The notes under the pieces are model-generated. The model was not told where the DNA came from, made no database searches, and saw nothing but the letters and a program-made list of their open reading frames with translations. The position numbers and the translations under genes are program-made. A stretch of 32,000 bases of DNA from Telmatocola sphagniphila (GTDB lineage: Bacteria > Planctomycetota > Planctomycetia > Gemmatales > Gemmataceae). How positions within the stretch are numbered: the stretch's first letter is position 1; the number at the start of each line of letters is the position of its first letter. Positions 4,014 through 15,600 of the stretch are shown piece after piece. The DNA lies in NCBI RefSeq assembly GCF_018398935.1, contig NZ_CP074694.1, positions 5,520,001-5,552,000 on the forward strand, read 5' to 3'.

Positions 4014-4080
4014 CTTCGTTCACCCGCCTGTTTTCGTTAGCCCGCCTGTTTTCGTTCACCCGCCTGTTTTCGTTAGCCCG
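4014..4080. repeat. tandem 18-bp repeat, units alternating CACCCGCCTGTTTTCGTT / AGCCCGCCTGTTTTCGTT (about 3.5 units)
   Basis: Read directly: ...cttcgtt cacccgcctgttttcgtt agcccgcctgttttcgtt cacccgcctgttttcgtt agcccg. It generates the artefactual PPVFV / NENRR peptide repeats in ORFs 3973..4530(+) and 3979..4188(-). Confidence 0.9.
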
Positions 4081-4233
4081 ACGCGTCAGCGAGGGCAGAA
4101 CGAAGCGATATTTATCCAAACCCAAAAGCATAGCACCGGATACGTTTTCACCAGACGTTCCGGATCCCCATCGCAAGAAGTTGGACATGGATATATGTTT
4201 TGTATCTTGCCCTCGATGACTCGTCGGGCTAAC
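4072..4233. repeat. 26-nt inverted-repeat pair bracketing 110 nt (MITE-like or structured element)
   Basis: 4072-4097 gttagcccgacgcgtcagcgagggca matches the reverse complement of 4208-4233 tgccctcgatgactcgtcgggctaac at 24 of 26 positions. An internal hairpin ccggaTacgt...acgttccgg lies at about 4136-4163. Confidence 0.8.
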
Positions 4234-4510
4234 AGTCCCTGTCAGATCTATTTTTCTGCAGAATTGATTTGTCTCAAATATCTATCTTGCATTTCAAAAA
4301 GAGGGCAGAACGAAGCGATATTAATCCAAACCCAAAAGCATAGCACCGGACACGTTTTCACCAGACGTTCCGGATCCCCATCGCAAGAAGTTGGACATGG
4401 ATATATGTTTTGTATCTTGCCCTCGATGACTCGTCGGGCTAACAGTCCCTGTCAGATCTATTTTTCTGCAGAATTGATTTGTCTCAGATATCTATCTTGC
4501 ATTTCAAAAA
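4091..4510. repeat. 2 x 210-bp head-to-tail tandem duplication
   Basis: Unit 1 (4091-4300) and unit 2 (4301-4510) both begin gagggcagaacgaagcgata and end cttgcatttcaaaaa. I count 3 differences (tttatcc/ttaatcc, ggatacg/ggacacg, ctcaaat/ctcagat). Confidence 0.95.
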
Positions 4511-5076
4511 GTTCGGCCCGTCTTCATTGACACTTTTTCTATTCCCCAAGCGCATGATCCTGTCGCCCGAGCTAAAAATCAGTCTTTCTATTCTTCGGTA
4601 GATTAATCCTCTTCCCGTGCAGGTGCTACCAGAAGCGAATAGAGCGATGACACATTCCTTTCCAGTTCTTCATAGTTCGATTACAAAAGATTCTCAATAA
4701 AAACTTCTCGGTTAGCCGTTCGAATTCGAGCAACTTCTCGTTCCCAGGCTGTTTCGGCAAAGGGACCGTAGAGAGGTTATTGTCCCGGTAAACCGTGAGA
4801 AAACGATCAAAAATGAGAGATATTGGCTTGTTTGTAATTGTTCGCCCGGGTAGTATTTCCTGATTGTGCCCTCCTCCCAGGGTTTCGCTCTTGATCTTGA
4901 AGATTAAGACATTTTTATTTTGACATCGTCCTTTCTGTGCCGCCGACGTCGGTTGATCGAGGCGTTAGTCACGCAGAGGACTTCGCGGTGCTTCGGCTCC
5001 GAGGTGAAAACTCCTGTGACCCAGTTCTTCAATAACCATATTTTCATTATTTTTTGATTTTGGGAGACAAAATAAA

Positions 5077-7941: not shown

Positions 7942-8618
7942 TGTCCCGAACCGAATTCTGGTCGCATTTGTAGCCGAATTAAAGCTGTAGGGATTTTGGC
8001 ATTTTGAAGAGTGTTTTGCCAAATTCCAGGGAATTTTGGAGCGGTCTGTGGGCCGAGACCGGGGTGCTGCGATGGGCCGGCGTAGTCGGGCACGAGTCGC
8101 CGCCGTTCGCCGTTTATTGCCGAAGTGGTCCAAGAATTTTTGCGGCGAGAAGGCGTGTTCGGCTTGTACTCTCCGCCGAGGAGGCCACAATATAACGGTG
8201 CGATCGAAGCGGGCATTGGATCTATGAAAAGTCGAATCGAACGTAGAGCTGCCTGGGAAGGCCATCCGGAAGTGTGGAACGCTGAGGATGTGGAGGCGGC
8301 TCGACGGGAAGCCAATGCCTTGGCTCGACCGAGAGGAGGTCTGGGTTCTACTCCAGAGACGCTTTGGAAAAGTCGGGAGAGAGTCACGACAGAATCTCGC
8401 GATCAGTTCTGAGAGCTTGTTGAAATCCATTGGAACCGAGCTATGAAGGAGGATGGAAAATCTCCTTCGGGAGTGTTGCTCGAGCAGGAAGCTCGCCGTA
8501 TGGATCGAATTGCTTTACGCCGTGCTCTCGTTGATCACGGCGATCTTTTGTTCAAGAGGGGGCCAATTCCTCTAGGAATTAAATCGCAAAAAACGGCAAA
8601 TATTACGTGAGGGGTACA
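7942..8618 (+). mobile_element. internally deleted IS element with TGT...ACA termini and an rve/DDE transposase remnant (IS3/IS481-like; family unresolved)
   Basis: Left end TGTCCCGAACCGAATTCTGGTCGCA... recurs at 15708. Right end ...AATATTACGTGAGGGGTACA recurs at 10853. The interior is only about 680 bp and the transposase reading frame starts mid-domain. Confidence 0.65.
8086..8610 (+). pseudogene. transposase fragment, integrase-core (rve) C-terminal part, with in-frame TGA at 8410-8412
   Basis: The frame opens right after a TAG at 8083. The sequence ...SPFIAEVVQEFLRREGVFGLYSPPRRPQYNGAIEAGIGSMKSRIE... matches the S.P..P..N..IE....G..K pattern around the third catalytic acidic residue of DDE/rve transposases. 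The same frame continues past the TGA to a stop at 8608-8610 (...MDRIALRRALVDHGDLLFKRGPIPLGIKSQKTANIT). Confidence 0.65.
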
Positions 8619-8748
8619 ATTGCAAATTCCGATTTTGAGAGAACAAGATGCCTTCCCAGATAGTCTCTCGCATAAATTTTGATACACTAAAATTCAAGAC
8701 ATTTGTTGTAGATTGAGCGTATTCATTCTGCTTATTTGGAGGGCAATT

Positions 8749-9228
8749 ATGATTATCTCAAAAACAAATAATTCTGTAGAAATTAAAAATTCAAAGTATA
8801 TTATCTTTTTCAGATATTTAATTTTATTTTTATTTGCATTGATTGCTTTTTTTATTTCAGGATTGATTATTTTTTTAATGCATCCTGCCAGTCAGACTTT
8901 TGCTATAGTAACTGCTGTAATCATTTTGAAAATTCTCTGTGTTTTCGTTTCTTCAATTCCATTGCTCGTATTTTTAACATTTTTCGTCAATGCTGATGAA
9001 TATCGTTTTACCAAACACAATGTAATTAAGATCTATTTTTATGGTTTAGTAAGAATTGAATATTCTTTCAGCAATCTTATTCTAGATAAAAATAATGGGC
9101 GGATGATATTTGGATCTGCGTACGAATATATTACATTAAGAACGGATAAAGAAAAAGTGGTATTAACAGGTCAAATTGAACAACTATCCTCTGAGCTAAT
9201 AGACGTTTTGAATTCATTTCCTGAATAA
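8749..9228 (+). CDS. hypothetical multi-pass membrane protein with soluble C-terminal domain
   Basis: ATG at 8749 follows GGAGGG (8738-8743). The track start at 8713 is TTG. There are two to three hydrophobic helices (YLILFLFALIAFFISGLIIFLM, FAIVTAVIILKILCVFVSSIPLLVFLTFFV). Coding is very AT-rich. Confidence 0.6.
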   Translation: MIISKTNNSVEIKNSKYIIFFRYLILFLFALIAFFISGLIIFLMHPASQTFAIVTAVIILKILCVFVSSIPLLVFLTFFVNADEYRFTKHNVIKIYFYGLVRIEYSFSNLILDKNNGRMIFGSAYEYITLRTDKEKVVLTGQIEQLSSELIDVLNSFPE

Positions 9229-9712
9229 TTATCTATCGCTTATTAGATGTTTCTTAAAGATTAGTGTTGTGTTCGCAATGAACATACCCTGGAAGGCTTA
9301 TCAGTATACTCCTTTCGGGGAAAACTTGAGCTTAGCTGTGAATGTTTTGAAAGATAGAATTGGAAAGTGCGAATGTATAAATTCCTAGAATTTAGCGGGC
9401 TTGGTAGAAAAGGTAATATTAGTTGCAAAAATACTGCGAATGCAAATGGCATTAATGCGCAAGGCGAAGGTGGCTGTTACCTTGATTCAAACTGCTTTGC
9501 GGGAAAAAGGCATAAGTCAACCACTGAAGAAGTATGGCTAAAACGGAAATATGTCCAGCTACAAAGGACAAAATTCTTTCAAAAGCTGCAATATTCGCAC
9601 CTTACGAAGCTGGCAATCCCGATAGATTCGTAGTCGCTCTCATTACAATCTCCTCCGATTTGGACAACATATAATTACTAATTCCGCAGCGGTTTATCAA
9701 CGAGCTCGAGAT

Positions 9713-9994
9713 TTGGCAGCAGCAGCTTACCTAGAGGCGGAAGCCTCTGAGAACTATTGGACTCGACTTTGGGGAAGAGTTATATTTTGTGGGAAGCGTT
9801 TCTTGGGACCTATAAGTGTTTTGGCAGGTGGAATCACTTCAATTGCCGGAGAAGCACAATCAATTGAAAATGCTAACCGTCCAAATAATGATTTGGATTG
9901 GGAATATGTAAGCCATGATATCACTATTGTTGGAACGTTTTGGATTTATAAAAATATTAAAACCGGGCAGAAGCGTCGAGTAAAAATCAACTGA
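9713..9994 (+). CDS. hypothetical protein, start uncertain (possibly the 3' part of a decayed gene)
   Basis: The TTG start in the track is weak, and the frame is open upstream to 9626 without an ATG. Two short ORFs (9446..9541 and 9534..9674) precede it in frames 2 and 0. Confidence 0.35.
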   Translation: MAAAAYLEAEASENYWTRLWGRVIFCGKRFLGPISVLAGGITSIAGEAQSIENANRPNNDLDWEYVSHDITIVGTFWIYKNIKTGQKRRVKIN

Positions 9995-10134
9995 GTATTT
10001 CCTATGGTAGATATTGTGCACTAACTAGATTCTTCCGTATTCATCGCTGTGAGCTGTTGAAATTTATTTTTTTAATTCGCACTCGATCAGAAGGTCAGGG
10101 ACACTTTTGACAGCGCGAAAAACCTGGGGAATGT

Positions 10135-10659
10135 ATGAAACGAGTGATGTATTTATTATTTTTTGTATTTTTATTTGACTTAATAGGGTGCTCACCGGAA
10201 CCCTTGGTTCAATCAAATCGACGCCAAACTCAACAGGAAAAAAAAGAATCTGAAGCTTCCATTATTGGAAAATGGGAGCTTGTCAAATGTGTATTTAAGG
10301 GAAAAGAGGCTCCCTCTAATTTACTTCGAGATGTCGAAGTCATTATTGACACTGAAAAAATCTCATTTAAACCGGCAATTATTTCATCTACTGGCAGAAA
10401 TAAAGAGAAAACCGAATTCCGATTGGAAGGCAGTTTCAAGGCTAAGCTAAAATTCGATCCGTATCACAGTCCGCACTCCAACCTGGATCTCACTGTTGAA
10501 GAGGACGGTGAGAGTAATTTGCTGAAAGGCATCTATAAATTAGATGTTAACAATTTGAAGATTTGTGTATCACCTACTTCAGAGAGGCCTAAGGATTTTT
10601 CGTCTACTGATAGCTCAGATACCCGTTTACTTGAACTCAAAAGAAAAACTGATCAATAA
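10135..10659 (+). CDS. lipoprotein with TIGR03067-like (Planctomycetes-specific) domain
   Basis: Signal peptide plus lipobox (LFDLIGC). The body fits the TIGR03067 pattern as I remember it: GKWELVKCVFKGKEAP...KFDPYHSP..LDL...LKGIYKLDVNNLKICVSPTSERPKDFSS...LLELKRK. GGGGA precedes the ATG. Confidence 0.65.
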   Translation: MKRVMYLLFFVFLFDLIGCSPEPLVQSNRRQTQQEKKESEASIIGKWELVKCVFKGKEAPSNLLRDVEVIIDTEKISFKPAIISSTGRNKEKTEFRLEGSFKAKLKFDPYHSPHSNLDLTVEEDGESNLLKGIYKLDVNNLKICVSPTSERPKDFSSTDSSDTRLLELKRKTDQ

Positions 10660-10736
10660 TTTGTCAGGCACTTCTTCGAATTTTTAGTTCTTCTCTGAAT
10701 TTAGTGGCTGACTCCCTTGGGCATCATGCTGAGCCT

Positions 10737-10853
10737 ATGGATCGAATTGCTTTACGCCGTGCTCTCTTTGATCACGGCGATCTTTTGTTGAAGAGAGGGC
10801 CAATTCCTCTAGTAATTAAATCGCAAAAACGGTAAATATTACGTGAGGGTACA
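10737..10853 (+). mobile_element. solo right-end fragment of the same IS as 7942..8618
   Basis: atggatcgaattgctttacgccgtgctctc...aaatattacgtgagggtaca parallels 8500-8618 with a few substitutions or indels and ends at the same ...TACA terminus. Confidence 0.75.
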
Positions 10854-11020
10854 CCAAAAATACCTGTAGACAAATATGAAAAATAAAAAATCCCTAGACG
10901 GCTATTCTTCCGTAAATAAATATTAACACACCAGCGATGAATGGCCGCGGCAAAAAATACAATACTAGCGTACAAGAATGGGTAAAGCGATCCAACATCA
11001 AATATTCAAGGTGACACACA

Positions 11021-11692
11021 ATGAAAAAATATATATTATTTACATTATTTATGTCATTGCTACTTGTGTACGTTCTATATGTAAAAATTCAATCAAATTA
11101 CAATGCATCAAACAGGTTGGTAATTTATGGAAAGTTGACAGAAATATACTCATTGATACTTAAATATCAGGAAAAATATGATTCACCTCTCTCATCCTTG
11201 AATAAAGATAAGGTCAATAGTTCGTCATTAAGTTGGCGTGTTTTTCTCACTGAATTTATGGATTTAGATATATTTTCAGAATTTCAAATGAATTCTGGTT
11301 GGGATTCTGAAAAAAATTACAAGCTAATTAACAAAATGCCCGCTGTTTATGCTACCTTTTCAGAAAGAAATGATTTTACCAGCACCAGTTTTATTTTGAT
11401 AAATATACCTAAGTTTGATAGGCAAAACTCTCCACCGGCGACTCGAGTTCAATCATCAATTATAGATCAATCAATAATTGTGGCATACGTGCCTTTCATT
11501 AAAGAAATGTGGACTCAGCCGTCGAAATACGCGGATTCCACCGAATTGCAAAATGTAATATCGCAATCTCTAACTTCTGGCAAACATTTTGATAACATTA
11601 TTGTTCTGCAATTGAATGGCGAAATATATTCTTTAACCGCTGAGCAATTCAACGGTAGATTATTAAATCAAATAGCAAATATGAAATATTAG
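11021..11692 (+). CDS. DUF1559-like protein lacking the usual prepilin-type N-terminus
   Basis: N-terminal hydrophobic anchor MKKYILFTLFMSLLLVYVLYV. The segment LSWRVFLTEFMDLDIFSEFQMNSGWDSEKNYKLINKMPAVYATF mirrors the DUF1559 core (SWRV.LLPY.EQ..LY..F....PWDS..N..L....P.VY.CP). The ATG is preceded by AAGGTG. Confidence 0.55.
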   Translation: MKKYILFTLFMSLLLVYVLYVKIQSNYNASNRLVIYGKLTEIYSLILKYQEKYDSPLSSLNKDKVNSSSLSWRVFLTEFMDLDIFSEFQMNSGWDSEKNYKLINKMPAVYATFSERNDFTSTSFILINIPKFDRQNSPPATRVQSSIIDQSIIVAYVPFIKEMWTQPSKYADSTELQNVISQSLTSGKHFDNIIVLQLNGEIYSLTAEQFNGRLLNQIANMKY

Positions 11693-11907
11693 GAAATATT
11701 CGTCTTATTTTAATATTCGTCATCTGGAATACTTCTCCTTCTTACCCTGATACACCCGTTGTAGCATTTGCAATATCCTGGGAAGGAATTTCAATTCTCG
11801 GGATTGTTTTCAATCTATTTGCTTGGAGCGCAGTCGCGGCTGTCAAGCCCCCGAAAGCGTGTCCAGATTGGATCGGAGTGGGTTGATGTAAAAAATGGTT
11901 TATCCGT

Positions 11908-12150
11908 GGTGGCACTGGTAACCCTTTAGAATCACCGTAAGTCATTGTCAGGTAATGCTTTGGGTGGTACTGGCTATCTGCGGTTGCCTGAGAGAGAGAA
12001 ATCAGATAGACTTTTCGTCAAGTCCGAAACAAATTCGATCCGAAAGCGGGAGTTATATCGAAACGGCTCTGGCAATAGCCAGTGCCACAAAAACCGTTAC
12101 TGGATAATGACATGCGTTGATTTGGTTAGGTTACCAGTGCCACCCCGCCG
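11908..12150 (+). repeat. S1: approx. 237-nt imperfect palindrome / rod-folding element (candidate MITE-like foldback element or structured RNA)
   Basis: Three coaxial helices read directly. P1: 11908-11923 GGTGGCACTGGTAACC pairs with 12129-12144 GGTTACCAGTGCCACC (16/16). P2: 11941-11957 pairs with 12095-12111 (17 positions, 1 mismatch, some G-T). P3: 11964-11977 pairs with 12075-12088 (14 bp including one G-T). These enclose an approx. 80-nt apical region. The ORFs 11742..11945(-) and 11945..12157(+) read through it and both contain LPVPPR, a palindrome artefact. Confidence 0.8.
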
Positions 12151-12281
12151 ACAGTAGAGATTTAGTTAATAAGTGTTTATTTTTAGTTTATTAATATTAC
12201 TATTTAAATAGTTAATCTGGTTTTTAATAATACAACGTTGAAGGAAACCTTCGTAGTCCAGATTTCCCGAACTGAATGTTA

Positions 12282-12319
12282 ATTGCTATATTGACAAAAT
12301 AAATTTGATTAAATAATTT
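12282..12319 (+). promoter_or_regulatory. candidate promoter of the protease-PDZ gene
   Basis: Two readings are possible. Sigma70-like: TTGACA (12291-12296), a 17-nt spacer, then TAATTT (12314-12319). Bacteroidota-like: ATTG (12282-12285), 14 nt, then TAAATTTG (12300-12307), about 30 nt before the ATG, with no Shine-Dalgarno. The AT-rich context makes chance matches likely. Confidence 0.3.
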
Positions 12320-12337
12320 ATCGTTTTGGATAAAACA

Positions 12338-13465
12338 ATGAAATATATTTTCTGTCAAATCCTATTTTTGATTGCAGGCCATTCATGCTTTGGACAAAAA
12401 ACAGACGTTGCTAATTATATAATTGAGGTAATTAAAATACCTAATAATGGAAAAGCCATTCTGGTACCAATATCTATCTCTAATAAAAAATATTTGTTTT
12501 TGTTCGATACTGGAGCAGCACGTTCTGCATTTGATATTCGATTGCCAGTTAAAGATGCCTCTCTTACAACGGAGCTGGCTGTAGGAACTTCCGGATCAAA
12601 AGAGTTGCGAACTGGCAAACCAGGAGATGGATATCTTGGTCGGATGAATATTAAAGATTCAATAAACAATGTTTGGCTAGATAACATGTCGAATCTTCGG
12701 AACTCTTTAGGCAAAGAAGTTTATGGTGTTTTGGGATTAGATTTTATTGTGAACAAAATTATTCAAATAGATTTTGACAATGGCGAGCTTAGATTTCTGG
12801 ATAAAATCAAAGAACCGCCAGGAGATGTTTACGATCTCTCTATAAACAAAATCGGTCAAGTTGAAATAAGTGCAAAGCTGAACGATTCTATACTGGACAA
12901 ATTTGTTGTTGATACAGGCTTCATTTCCACACAGAGTGGTTTTCTAAAAGAGGATACGTCAAGCGCGCTCAAAATCAACACAAAGTTCCACATGGTCGGC
13001 GATGGCATTTTTCAGGGAATAGCTGGGGAAAACACTCAATCGTTTACGCAATTTGACACTATTAAATTTGGCGATAAATTAATCAAAAAGCCGATATTCA
13101 CAATCAATAATACTAGTATTCTTAGCAATTACTTTCTGTCTCGTTTTTTGGTGACAATTGACTATTCTCAAAAAAAAATATATCTAAAACCAGGAAAGAA
13201 TTATACAAAAAAAGACTTGTATAATTTGAGCGGTATGCACCTCCTGGTTGACGATAAAAAAATTATCATCGATGGGCTGGATGAGGGAAGTGTGTCCAAG
13301 AAATCGGGAATTCTTATTGGCGATCAGATTTTCAAATTAGAAACTATCGAATTGGCTAAACTTGACGTAGAAGATTTAAGGATTTTGCTTAGTACTCCTG
13401 GAGATTTAAAATTAACAATTCAGAGAAAATCTAAGATGATTGATTTTGTTTTGCGTTTAAAATAA
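12338..13465 (+). CDS. secreted retropepsin-like aspartyl protease (two DTG lobes) with C-terminal PDZ domain
   Basis: Signal peptide MKYIFCQILFLIAGHSCFGQ. Two catalytic-type motifs are present: LFLFDTGAARSAF and KFVVDTGFISTQSG. The C-terminal approx. 85 aa (GMHLLVDDKKIIIDGLDEGSVSKKSGILIGDQIFKLETIELAKL...LKLTIQR) looks like a PDZ fold. The track start at 12326 is TTG, so ATG 12338 is preferred. Confidence 0.7.
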   Translation: MKYIFCQILFLIAGHSCFGQKTDVANYIIEVIKIPNNGKAILVPISISNKKYLFLFDTGAARSAFDIRLPVKDASLTTELAVGTSGSKELRTGKPGDGYLGRMNIKDSINNVWLDNMSNLRNSLGKEVYGVLGLDFIVNKIIQIDFDNGELRFLDKIKEPPGDVYDLSINKIGQVEISAKLNDSILDKFVVDTGFISTQSGFLKEDTSSALKINTKFHMVGDGIFQGIAGENTQSFTQFDTIKFGDKLIKKPIFTINNTSILSNYFLSRFLVTIDYSQKKIYLKPGKNYTKKDLYNLSGMHLLVDDKKIIIDGLDEGSVSKKSGILIGDQIFKLETIELAKLDVEDLRILLSTPGDLKLTIQRKSKMIDFVLRLK

Positions 13466-13749
13466 TATTTTTTGTGAAGAACACTAGGTTTTTTCTTTAG
13501 TTTACTTAGTTACGAATGATTCGTATGTAATTCGCTTGGAGCCACAATCGCCCGTATTCTGTTCATACAATGAAGTGATCCGTAAATGCCTAAAACGAAT
13601 TTCGGATTATTAGTAATTTCAAGTTAATTTAAGGTTGAAAGGCGAATGAAATTCCTAAAAAATCATTAAATTCGATTCTAGCGAGACTGCTACAGAAATC
13701 GCAAGCGGATCCAGGTAACGAAGCGTTGAAGGGGCGCGTCGGCTCGACG

Positions 13750-13993
13750 GGTGGCACTGGTAACCCTTTAGAATCACCGTAAGTCATTGTCAGGTAATGT
13801 ATTGGCTGACACTGGCTATCTGCCGTTGCCTGAGAAAGCGAAATCAGATAGACTTTTCATCAACTCCGAAACAATTTCGATCCGATAGCGGGAGTTATAT
13901 CGAAACGGCCGGTGGCAATAATCAGTACCACCCAAACTGTTACTCAATAACGACTTGCGTTGATTTAGTTCGGCTACCAGTGCCACCCCGCCG
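13750..13993 (+). repeat. S2: second, partly decayed copy of the S element
   Basis: The first 50 nt (13750-13799) are identical to S1 11908-11957. The rest is colinear with scattered substitutions. The terminal helix is GGTGGCACTGGTAACC / GGCTACCAGTGCCACC (1 mismatch), and the P2/P3 arms carry several mismatches. ORFs 13797..14078(+) and 13816..14004(-) read through it. Confidence 0.8.
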
Positions 13994-14232
13994 TGCAGGC
14001 TCACTTTGCCAAAGAGAAAGCTTCTTCTCTCTTGGCCAAGGCGTGAGTTATTACACGAGACTCTCGCAAAGAGATTAGCTCAGTTGGCTGCTCGTGGGCA
14101 GACCTATAAAGGAGCAAGAGTCAAACTCGTCAAGGAAGTAGATAGCTCGTACTTCCTTGGCGTAAAAATTCCTCACTTTAAATTTACGTACGAAGTGAAA
14201 TAGCTGCGGTCCATTGCTACGAGGATCAACAA

Positions 14233-14445
14233 ATGAACGAAATCGAACGCTTTTTCCATGATCTTTCACGAATCGCTCCCTTCATGGAAGAATTAGTGAT
14301 GGTACCGGAATCACACTTCTTTTATGATGTTTTTAGTGGATCTATTGTGTTGCCTGATGAATTGCCAAAAGCTGCACCTATTAGTTTTGATTGCCTTCGC
14401 TTTGTCTTTAAATATAGAACAGGATTGCAAGTCGGAGAGCCGTAG
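14233..14445 (+). CDS. small hypothetical protein; possibly the 5' part of a 99-codon gene interrupted by an in-frame TAG
   Basis: ATG at 14233 is preceded by GAGGA. After the TAG at 14443-14445 the same frame continues PSLELFWKEANRCFPKWIGFSPKRMNWS to TAA at 14530-14532. Confidence 0.4.
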   Translation: MNEIERFFHDLSRIAPFMEELVMVPESHFFYDVFSGSIVLPDELPKAAPISFDCLRFVFKYRTGLQVGEP

Positions 14446-14555
14446 CCATCTTTAGAACTCTTTTGGAAAGAAGCGAATCGGTGTTTCCCAAAATGGATTG
14501 GCTTTTCACCGAAGCGCATGAACTGGTCTTAAAAAAATTGAAAAGGCAGATCGTT

Positions 14556-14897
14556 ATGCGGCACTACGTATTGTTTAGATGTATTATAGCTCTGAATTAT
14601 TTAGTTGCTGGCTGTTCTTTTTTTATGGCTGCATATGGCCATCACAAGTTTTGGTTGTCTTCTATAGAAAAATGTTCTAGAAATATTCTTTTTATATTCG
14701 AACCAAAGCTAACGAATGATACTATGGAGCAGCAGAAAAAATTAATTGAAATGGAAAGTGAGATTCGAGTATCATCCCATCTTGTAAATGTATCCGGCGA
14801 AATCGGTTGGCATTTGGCCACCCTCATATCTTTAATTACCGCAATTGGCTTGAAATACATCTATAGGAAAATTAAAAATAATCAGTTCAACATGTAA
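14556..14897 (+). CDS. small two-TM membrane protein (hypothetical)
   Basis: The internal ATG at 14556 of ORF 14463..14897 gives MRHYVLFRCIIALNYLVAGCSFFMAAYG... with a second helix WHLATLISLITAIGLKYI. The upstream part of the track ORF overlaps the previous reading frame. Confidence 0.45.
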   Translation: MRHYVLFRCIIALNYLVAGCSFFMAAYGHHKFWLSSIEKCSRNILFIFEPKLTNDTMEQQKKLIEMESEIRVSSHLVNVSGEIGWHLATLISLITAIGLKYIYRKIKNNQFNM

Positions 14898-15016
14898 AAT
14901 TTAATATTTTGCCGTAGTATACTGTTTAGAATTATCCTGGCGAATCTGAATTCGCAGTTACTCCTTCTAAGGTGGAAAGTCTCGTTGCGAATAACTCAAA
15001 TTGTAGTGCCTCTCTT

Positions 15017-15244: not shown

Positions 15245-15600
15245 GGCTCTGTCGCCCAGTTGGTGACGAGCGTTGGTTAGAATGTCTTCAGGAATTCATT
15301 CTGACAGGACGCAGCCTCATGACTCTGCAGGACCTCTTTCCTCAAGAGGCCGGTTTGGTCGTTACCGATTTCGCTCTCACTCCGGATCTTTTGGCCCTTG
15401 CTCTAAAAACCACATGCCCGAGTTCGCAGTGCCCCGACTGTGGCCAGCGGACAGATCGGATTCACAGCCATTATTGGCGGGTATTGGCGGACTTACCCTG
15501 GCAAGCTCGACGAGTATTGCTCCGGATCGAACTGCGAAAATTTCGATGCATGAATGCCGCTTGCCCCAGGCAAATCTTCTGTGTACGGCTACTATGAACT
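15245..15600 (+). mobile_element. ISL3-family left-end fragment with truncated transposase
   Basis: The GGCTCTGTCGCCCAGTTGGTGAC terminus resembles ISL3-family GGCTCTT... inverted repeats. ORF 15319..15597 carries the N-terminal zinc-finger region. Confidence 0.5.
15319..15597 (+). pseudogene. ISL3-family transposase, N-terminal zf-ISL3 fragment only
   Basis: ...CPSSQCPDCGQRTDRIHSHYWRVLADLPWQARRVLLRIELRKFRCMNAACPRQIF matches the ISL3 pattern CP.CG....R.HS.Y.R...DLP......L.....RF.C.N..C....F. The frame then terminates, so the catalytic domain is absent. Confidence 0.65.

Follow-up and report, generated by a model that had tools for sequence, protein, structure and literature searches.

What is the imperfect palindrome of some 240 nt that lies between open reading frames (ORFs) in a 32-kb stretch of the genome of Telmatocola sphagniphila (Gemmataceae), and what could have placed it there? 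Throughout, this whole stretch of 32,000 nt is called the window, and positions refer to it unless a metagenomic locus is named; the palindrome is called S, and its first copy, S1, occupies 11902-12150. A preliminary description, made from the letters of the DNA alone, had recognised S1 but could assign it to no class, and left a foldback miniature inverted-repeat transposable element (MITE), a recombination site and a structured RNA side by side as options. We take S to be, most likely, a non-autonomous mobile DNA element of small size and not a new RNA class. More specifically, and more tentatively, we propose that S1 and a second copy, S2, which the preliminary description overlooked, are a nested, double-foot foldback repeat resembling a REPIN, that is, a hairpin-forming doublet of repetitive extragenic palindromic (REP) sequences. 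It would have been moved as single-stranded DNA by a Y1 transposase of the REP-associated tyrosine transposase (RAYT) type, and is possibly inert by now. This is the reading that we prefer, although we stop short of calling it probable.

Architecture of the element and its two copies

S1 is about 249 nt long, with ends set by the alignment of S1 and S2, in which the limits of homology are sharp. It consists of CG(N), then the palindrome GGTGGCAC...GTGCCACC, and then a tail, CCGCCG. The conserved unit is slightly longer than first described and spans ~11902-12150 with the 3' tail included. The palindrome is collinear and imperfect, measures ~243 nt, and ends in a perfect 16-bp helix in which GGTGGCACTGGTAACC (11908-11923) pairs with GGTTACCAGTGCCACC (12129-12144); on this helix and on the imperfect palindrome the alignment of the arms agrees fully with the preliminary description. 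The arms, 73 nt each, align without a gap and give 53 Watson-Crick pairs and 11 mismatches, the other positions being wobbles (7 G.T on the + strand, and 2 that are G.T on the - strand only). We do not find the symmetric 17-nt internal loops that had been reported: the largest internal loop has 5-6 nt per side (11924-11929), and the other interruptions are single mismatches or wobbles. The apical, non-palindromic domain measures ~91 nt (11981-12071) instead of approx. 80 nt, and in the minimum free energy and centroid folds it contains small local hairpins, among them the CCG-AAAG-CGG noted before. It is mostly kept between S1 and S2, and beyond these two it has no homologue in the metagenome loci, Rfam, plasmids or phages.

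The motif GTGG(C/T)ACTGG does occur exactly four times in S1 in the order > > < <, at 11909, 11964, 12079(-) and 12134(-), just as had been claimed. With up to one mismatch it is found 12 times in the whole window, where 1.4 matches are expected, and all the exact matches lie inside S1 or S2. At each of the four sites in S1, GTGG abuts the stem base (C/T)ACTGG without a gap. GGTGG...CCACC is present at an outer and an inner level, and the whole element folds as a single rod. S1 contains two concentric pairs of feet, 55 nt apart; the 13-nt foot reads CGGGTGGCACTGG. The outer-left foot (11908-11923, + strand) is a GGTGG head followed by the stem arm CACTGGTAACC; it pairs with 12129-12144 and is identical in S2. 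The outer-right foot, GGTTACCAGTGCCACC, together with the tail, takes up 12129-12150 (- strand), and the tail is the same in S1 and S2. The inner-left foot, GTGGTACTGGCTAT (11964-11977, + strand), pairs with 12075-12088 in a 14-bp helix that includes one G.T, and the inner-right foot, CTCTGGCAATAGCCAGTGCCAC (12067-12088, - strand), is a local hairpin, CTGGC-AATA-GCCAG, followed by TG-CCAC.

The second copy, S2 (13744-13993), is oriented like S1 and lies 1842 nt downstream of it; the two share 88.5% identity over 244 nt, and S2 has motifs at 13751(+), 13922(-, one mismatch) and 13977(-). Homology runs from CG(N)GGTGGCAC to GTGCCACCCCGCCG and stops abruptly at both limits. The flanks, which read ...TTTATCCGT / element / ACAGTAG for S1 and ...GGCTCGACG / element / TGCAGGC for S2, are no more alike than shuffles, either upstream or downstream, and on this ground a segmental duplication can be rejected. 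S is therefore a discrete repeat, and the abrupt limits taken together with the dissimilar flanks argue for transposition or copying. Target-site duplications, which the preliminary description had named as a check, are absent from both of the copies examined, and the flanks contain no direct repeat. Both copies are extragenic, lying between ORFs, and both are downstream of + strand ORFs. The ORFs inside S1 and S2 are in differing frames, and these spurious gene calls have neither exact entries nor homologues in the protein collection searched with them. A further imperfect hairpin, GCCAAAGAGAA...TTCTCTCTTGGC, is found immediately 3' of S2, at 14006-14039.

The first 50 nt of the two copies are identical and the divergence lies in the right arm; the outer heads and feet are intact in both, and the stem of S1 is near-perfect, while the inner-left foot of S2 is degenerate and reads CTGACACTGG. 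When the structure of S1 is mapped on S2, 72 of 84 pairs are unchanged, 2 are altered on one side but still paired, 10 are broken and none is compensated, and the substitutions in the stem of S2 are mainly transitions. The stem of S2 is decaying. Covariation, another check that had been named, is not seen in this comparison of two sequences, with zero compensatory changes against 10 broken pairs.

S1, described before as a folded rod, does fold far better than chance on both strands and under RNA as well as DNA parameters (z ~ -6.4 to -9.2). The RNA folds of S1 have energies of -112.7 kcal/mol for the + strand (z = -9.2) and -95.3 kcal/mol for the - strand (z = -6.4), with none of 200 shuffles as good in either case. 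As DNA, the two strands give -54.5 and -54.1 (z ~ -7), and no shuffle is equal. S2 folds more weakly, at -45 as DNA; as RNA it gives -90.3 on the + strand and -93.9 on the - strand, a strand preference opposite to that of S1.

Resemblance to REP sequences and the proposed mobility

We disagree with the statement that S belongs to no class that can be named. What defines a REP is a head, GTAG or GTGG, at 0-2 nt on the 5' side of a hairpin foot (PMC6006769; PMC2817692), and 'double-foot' REPs, with 5' GT[AG]G and 3' C[TC]AC, can arise by a central deletion in an inverted dimer (PMC6006769). In S, each motif is a GTGG head placed directly against a CACTGG stem base, as in the GT[AG]G-tagged and double-foot REPs (PMC2817692, PMC3733652, PMC6006769). 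In Stenotrophomonas, RAYT genes are flanked by GGTGG-headed REPs (PMC2817692); GTGG variants occur in Opitutus terrae, a bacterium of the Planctomycetes-Verrucomicrobia-Chlamydiae (PVC) group, and in Rhodopirellula baltica there are several families of REPs along with numerous Y1 transposases (PMC3733652). Like REPs and REPINs, S has a GTGG head, extended to GGTGG, directly 5' of a stem; it has heads at both ends, which amounts to a 'double foot' (PMC6006769); its inverted units fold into a larger hairpin; it is extragenic and without a target-site duplication; and its head and stem base are identical to those of a REP-like family in planctomycete-type metagenome contigs. Unlike them, it is ~243 nt long, where a REP measures 20-40 nt and a typical REPIN roughly 70-110 nt, its foot pairs are two and concentric, and its 91-nt apex is not palindromic. 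The spacers of REP dimers are 20 to 100 bp (PMC3733652).

The metagenomic family came from a scan with the pattern GGTGGCACTGG N{200,230} CCAGTGCCACC, which returned 24 loci, and the likeness in size between S and the foldbacks so found is imposed by this pattern and has no evidential value. Roughly a third of the 24 loci appear to have matched by chance, within coding sequence. In no fewer than 13 contigs, the 11-mer is embedded in units of the form CG-GGTGG-CACTGGC(G)-loop(3-5)-(C)GCCAGTG, of which 39 were counted. The sequence CG-GGTGG-CACTGG, with which S also ends, makes up the head and the stem base of these units. In the monomeric units the GGTGG head is unpaired and present on one side only; the head and CACTGG are constant, and the distal stem and the loop are variable. 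The tail CCGCCG of S resembles the CGNC that follows CCACC in these units. Judged by its letters, the inner-right foot appears to be the sole unit of S1 that still resembles a self-contained REP, and may be compared with the metagenomic CACTGGC-TAT-GCCAGTG. The units also form heads-outward inverted dimers of ~76 nt (L021, L027) and, at L016:6609-6863, a nested > > > < < < < array in which 3 direct heads with 27-nt spacing face 4 inverted heads with 39-nt spacing. The latter array is a larger version of the > > < < layout of S1.

Foldbacks of ~240 nt with the feet of S and unrelated interiors are present in L006/8/12/14/20, L007/17, L013, L019 and L022. Their alignment with S is limited to the termini, and an overall homology of S to them is rejected for that reason; no target-site duplication was found at foldbacks with S termini. 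Five of them form a family of ~240 nt (L006:88-329, L008:193-439, L012:911-1154, L014:570-825, L020:624-867) in which a complete REP, GGTGG-CACTGGCG-TGT-CGCCAGTG, stands at either end of a conserved, rod-like interior, and 17 pairs are kept by compensatory changes on both sides. As far as we have checked, this family is undescribed. Because the ends are so conserved while the interiors are unrelated, a trans-acting protein that reads the ends is implied. The genes on the contigs with these REPs include those for DUF1559 proteins, sulfatases and FGE-sulfatase, and the gene content gives the contigs an apparently planctomycete or PVC flavour. A second REP type, GTAGGGTGGGCCAAGTCTTCG...CGAAGACTTGGCCCACCCTAC, occurs within or beside the GGTGG-CACTGG units in L007, L017 and L025; therefore two tagged REP families coexist on the same contigs.

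Enzymes that could serve such sequences are not foreign to this phylum. The R. baltica RAYT sequence of PMC3733652, used as query, has 863 relatives across Planctomycetes, including one in a metagenome-assembled genome (MAG) of Gemmataceae; the family retains ~60% identity across the phylum and has no precomputed Pfam match on record. All five RAYT loci that were fetched are flanked by tagged REP hairpins. Arrays of GTAG-headed REPs flank the loci L148:9700-10900, L153:9700-11000, L152 and L150 (~10001-10582), the REP of L148 and L153 being GTAG-CCGAAGTC-GCCA-GACTTCGG, and a flanking unit, GTAGCCGAAGTCGCCAGACTTCGG, is common to the Gemmataceae MAG and an unrelated contig from JGI. Given the 863 relatives and the REPs at five of five loci, REP-RAYT systems are native to Planctomycetes, Gemmataceae included. 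A link by synteny, through a kinase gene beside the RAYT as in L148, was considered and rejected, the kinases being just 26% identical.

How S might have moved we infer by analogy, both as regards the enzyme and as regards the single-stranded intermediate. The four motifs would represent two concentric pairs of REP feet, every foot having its GT[AG]G-type head directly at a stem base. When the region becomes single-stranded, for example as the lagging-strand template, S would fold into its rod; a Y1 HUH transposase of the RAYT or IS200-IS605 type could then recognise the head and the stem base, cut just outside the feet, and move or copy S, leaving no target-site duplication. The outer feet, which both copies retain intact, would then serve as the working ends, and the inner feet would be what an older REP dimer or a nested insertion has left behind. 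Y1/HUH elements such as IS200/IS605 insert without a target-site duplication, unlike MITEs of the DDE type; the lack of direct repeats at S1 and S2 is therefore as expected for the former and not for the latter. Further, the recognition logic proposed here is that of the subterminal hairpins of IS200/IS605, namely a hairpin plus an adjacent guide tetranucleotide, and in both cases there is an asymmetric extension beyond the hairpin, which in S is the CCGCCG tail on one side. The analogy is not complete: neither tnpA nor tnpB lies between the ends of S, and these ends are reverse complements of each other, while the left and right ends of IS200/IS605 are distinct.

If the proposal is correct, S extends the idea of REPs and REPINs in a poorly studied phylum by a long, nested, double-footed form, in which feet of 13 nt are conserved and the interior is free to vary. 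Such a form would fit a hairpin-reading transposase that needs little beyond the head and the stem base. The present pair may be relics, since S2 is decaying and the window is without ordinary short REPs.

Several observations weigh against this proposal. Two copies of S are known, 1.84 kb apart within 32 kb, no cognate RAYT was found, and a descriptor scan of the window detected no canonical short REP. The outer feet of S have no local hairpin and pair across ~210 nt; except for the inner-right unit, S1 does not consist of the short self-contained hairpins that define REP units (a basal stem of 7-20 bp closed by a 2-5-nt loop, or else a long hairpin with bulges). What ties S to the metagenomic family is ~13 nt at each end, in a scan seeded with the same motif; the interior of S has no homologue in the metagenome loci, and the REP contigs have 60-70% G+C against 47% in S. 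REPs of the GTGG-CACTGG type are present at none of the five sampled planctomycete RAYT loci, which have GTAG-CCGAAGTC-type or other REPs instead. No Telmatocola RAYT is among the best 120 of the 863 relatives, and tblastn with eight published RAYT/TIRYT sequences revealed no Y1 transposase in the window or in the REP-bearing metagenome loci. Extended S termini at the right spacing were found in none of 185,579 species genomes, a collection from which the source genome is absent or in which the window is masked. BLASTN with S gave no match to annotated plasmid and phage records.

Other searches were equally unproductive. The bare 16-mer has at least 120 matches in the species genomes, in a chance-like manner, and local BLAST detected no S-like sequence among the matches listed. 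Viral contigs scanned for S termini gave no match, and the literature searched for the motif strings returned primer sequences only.

Competing explanations

The explanation that survives best beside our own is that S is inert, a palindrome that was copied once nearby, with both copies now decaying and having neither function nor mobility at present. We regard this as rather unlikely, and it describes the present state of S more than its origin; it does not replace a REPIN-like origin. It accords with the small number and close spacing of the known copies, with the erosion of the S2 stem, mostly by transitions and without compensation, with the absence of an S homologue in any collection searched, and with the lack of canonical REPs in the window. 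On the other hand, the stem of S1 is still near-perfect, the outer feet are intact in both copies, and sharp-ended copying of a palindrome alone into unrelated flanks needs some mobilising mechanism. There is also the matter of a Logan contig, SRR14506984_115 (L003), which corresponds to 12094-13777 of the window, carries the gene lying between S1 and S2, and has both of its ends inside S elements. Its right break is accounted for by the 50-nt stretch common to S1 and S2, whereas no 31-mer repeat in the window accounts for its left end at 12094. This break could reflect a third copy of S elsewhere, which would speak against an inert palindrome, or a loss of coverage induced by the hairpin. In any case, S breaks short-read assemblies, as this contig demonstrates.

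Could S be a foldback MITE in the ordinary sense? According to this explanation, S derives from an insertion sequence by internal deletion, a DDE transposase supplied in trans binds its 16-bp terminal inverted repeats, and the two motifs per arm are outer and inner binding sites, as in ends of the IR/DR type. The terminal inverted repeat, perfect over 16 bp, with two direct motif copies per arm, is what such an element should have; the size of S is typical of MITEs, its two copies lie in unrelated flanks, and there are transposase fragments within the same island. Nevertheless, we consider it improbable. Target-site duplications are missing not only at S1 and S2 but also at the metagenomic foldbacks with S termini. 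The GGTGG head, one-sided and unpaired in the metagenomic monomers, is REP-like and is not a terminal inverted repeat. A parent insertion sequence with GGTGGCACTGG ends is absent from the window and from the ~1 Mb of fetched loci, in none of which does a pair of S termini bracket a transposase gene. The preliminary description saw no adjacent transposase, and this holds for the immediate neighbours but not for the vicinity: a truncated ISL3-family transposase lies at 15319-15597 and a possible DDE-transposase 3' remnant at ~8125-8613, both with ends unrelated to S. Among the three options of the preliminary description, that of a MITE is favoured in the broad sense of a discrete, sharp-ended DNA repeat present in two copies with unrelated flanks, but S is no ordinary MITE with terminal inverted repeats and target-site duplications.

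S may also be compared with the long palindromic repeats of other bacteria. ERIC/IRU, Correia/NEMIS and the Rickettsia palindromic elements are typically multi-copy, and those derived from DDE elements carry target-site duplications. S is like them in being an intergenic, non-coding imperfect palindrome in the range of 100-250 nt that forms a rod as RNA or as single-stranded DNA; it is unlike them in that it lacks a target-site duplication and has tagged feet of the REP type.

An alternative of another kind is that S acts as RNA, either as a rod in the mRNA of the upstream + strand gene, where it would be a stabiliser or terminator, or as a discrete structured noncoding RNA of ~240 nt. Both copies are downstream of + strand ORFs, the + strand of S1 folds better than the - strand and has 7 G.U pairs against 2, and REPs are known to affect mRNA stability (PMC3733652). 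Yet we find this decidedly improbable. The strand preference is reversed in S2, and under DNA parameters both strands fold equally well; the 10 broken pairs between S1 and S2 come without a single compensation; and neither a terminator-like U tract nor a promoter-like or terminator-like signal stands out at S1 or S2. Rfam 15 gives no match over the whole window at the gathering score and none on S1 or S2 even at E <= 1, which settles the Rfam search named in the preliminary description. The structured RNA that had been left as an option there has no support from Rfam, from compensatory changes or from a consistent strand bias. We advise against annotating S as an RNA gene.

The recombination site, the last of those options, would be a site-specific one that bounds gene cassettes in the manner of the integron attC, with S1 and S2 bracketing one foreign gene. 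The layout does invite the comparison: S1, a single ORF (12338-13465) for an orphan protease-PDZ protein and S2 follow each other with the S copies in direct orientation, and the island around them is an array of AT-rich + strand ORFs with secretion-signal-like N-termini. S shares with attC an imperfectly palindromic sequence able to fold as single-stranded DNA, a place between co-oriented foreign ORFs and four short boxes resembling protein sites. An attC site is 57-141 nt long and has boxes R''-L''...L'-R', the cores being RYYYAAC and GTTRRRY. The motifs of S differ from these in sequence and in order, being > > < < and not > < ... > <; its termini, TGGTAAC / GTTACCA, do contain AAC and GTT but do not fit RYYYAAC/GTTRRRY, and its 243 nt are about twice the maximum length of attC. 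Other ORF junctions in the island have no S, which is present at just two of about six. No scanned ORF of the window has a tyrosine recombinase domain, and there is no intI nearby. Having failed on consensus, size and integrase, the attC comparison leaves a recombination site that we keep as a very unlikely explanation.

Finally, it is far-fetched, and the least probable of the ideas considered here, that the GGTGG-CACTGG feet are the ends of an undescribed planctomycete single-stranded DNA cassette system, in which ~240-nt rods with free interiors bracket and move single foreign genes (as in S1-protease-S2) by means of a Y1 or another hairpin-reading recombinase. Such a system, if it existed, would be to REPs what the attC cassette is to integrons.

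The island and the rest of the window

S1 and S2 sit in an AT-rich island of 6.5 kb (~8500-15000), with 30-44% G+C against ~55% in the surrounding genome. It is populated by small co-oriented + strand ORFs whose N-termini are signal-peptide-like or lipoprotein-like, and it has the appearance of foreign DNA in which the debris of mobile elements collects; S, in our opinion, marks it as a sink for mobile DNA. The ORF between the two copies is KIH39_22125 of the 6.59-Mb T. sphagniphila contig. It codes for an aspartyl-protease/PDZ protein; the nearest relatives of this protein are only ~27% identical and include some labelled as Bacteroidota. The ORF at 11021-11692, looked up for the left-hand Logan contig, has nothing on record.

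At the right edge of the island, the ISL3-family fragment retains the N-terminal zinc ribbon only (NCBIfam E = 4.7e-15, profile 3-63 of 370). The possible DDE remnant is a broken ORF with sub-threshold NCBIfam matches (E ~ 0.01) and may correspond to the C-terminal part of an IS3/IS21/IS481-type enzyme. Its 3' end, 8479-8613, is repeated directly at 10716-10849, over 135 nt and with 89% identity, and AT-rich DNA follows at once after both repeat copies.

Elsewhere, the window consists of ordinary housekeeping DNA. The whole window has no tRNA or tmRNA genes, and its scanned ORFs include no integrase or tyrosine recombinase, no reverse transcriptase and no Y1 transposase. To the left of the island, at 4091-4511, there is a tandem duplication of 210 nt (2.0 copies, 98% identity), preceded by 3.3 copies of an 18-nt repeat (4015-4074). 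The region has a lower G+C content and is overlapped by a spurious-looking ORF of 185 aa.

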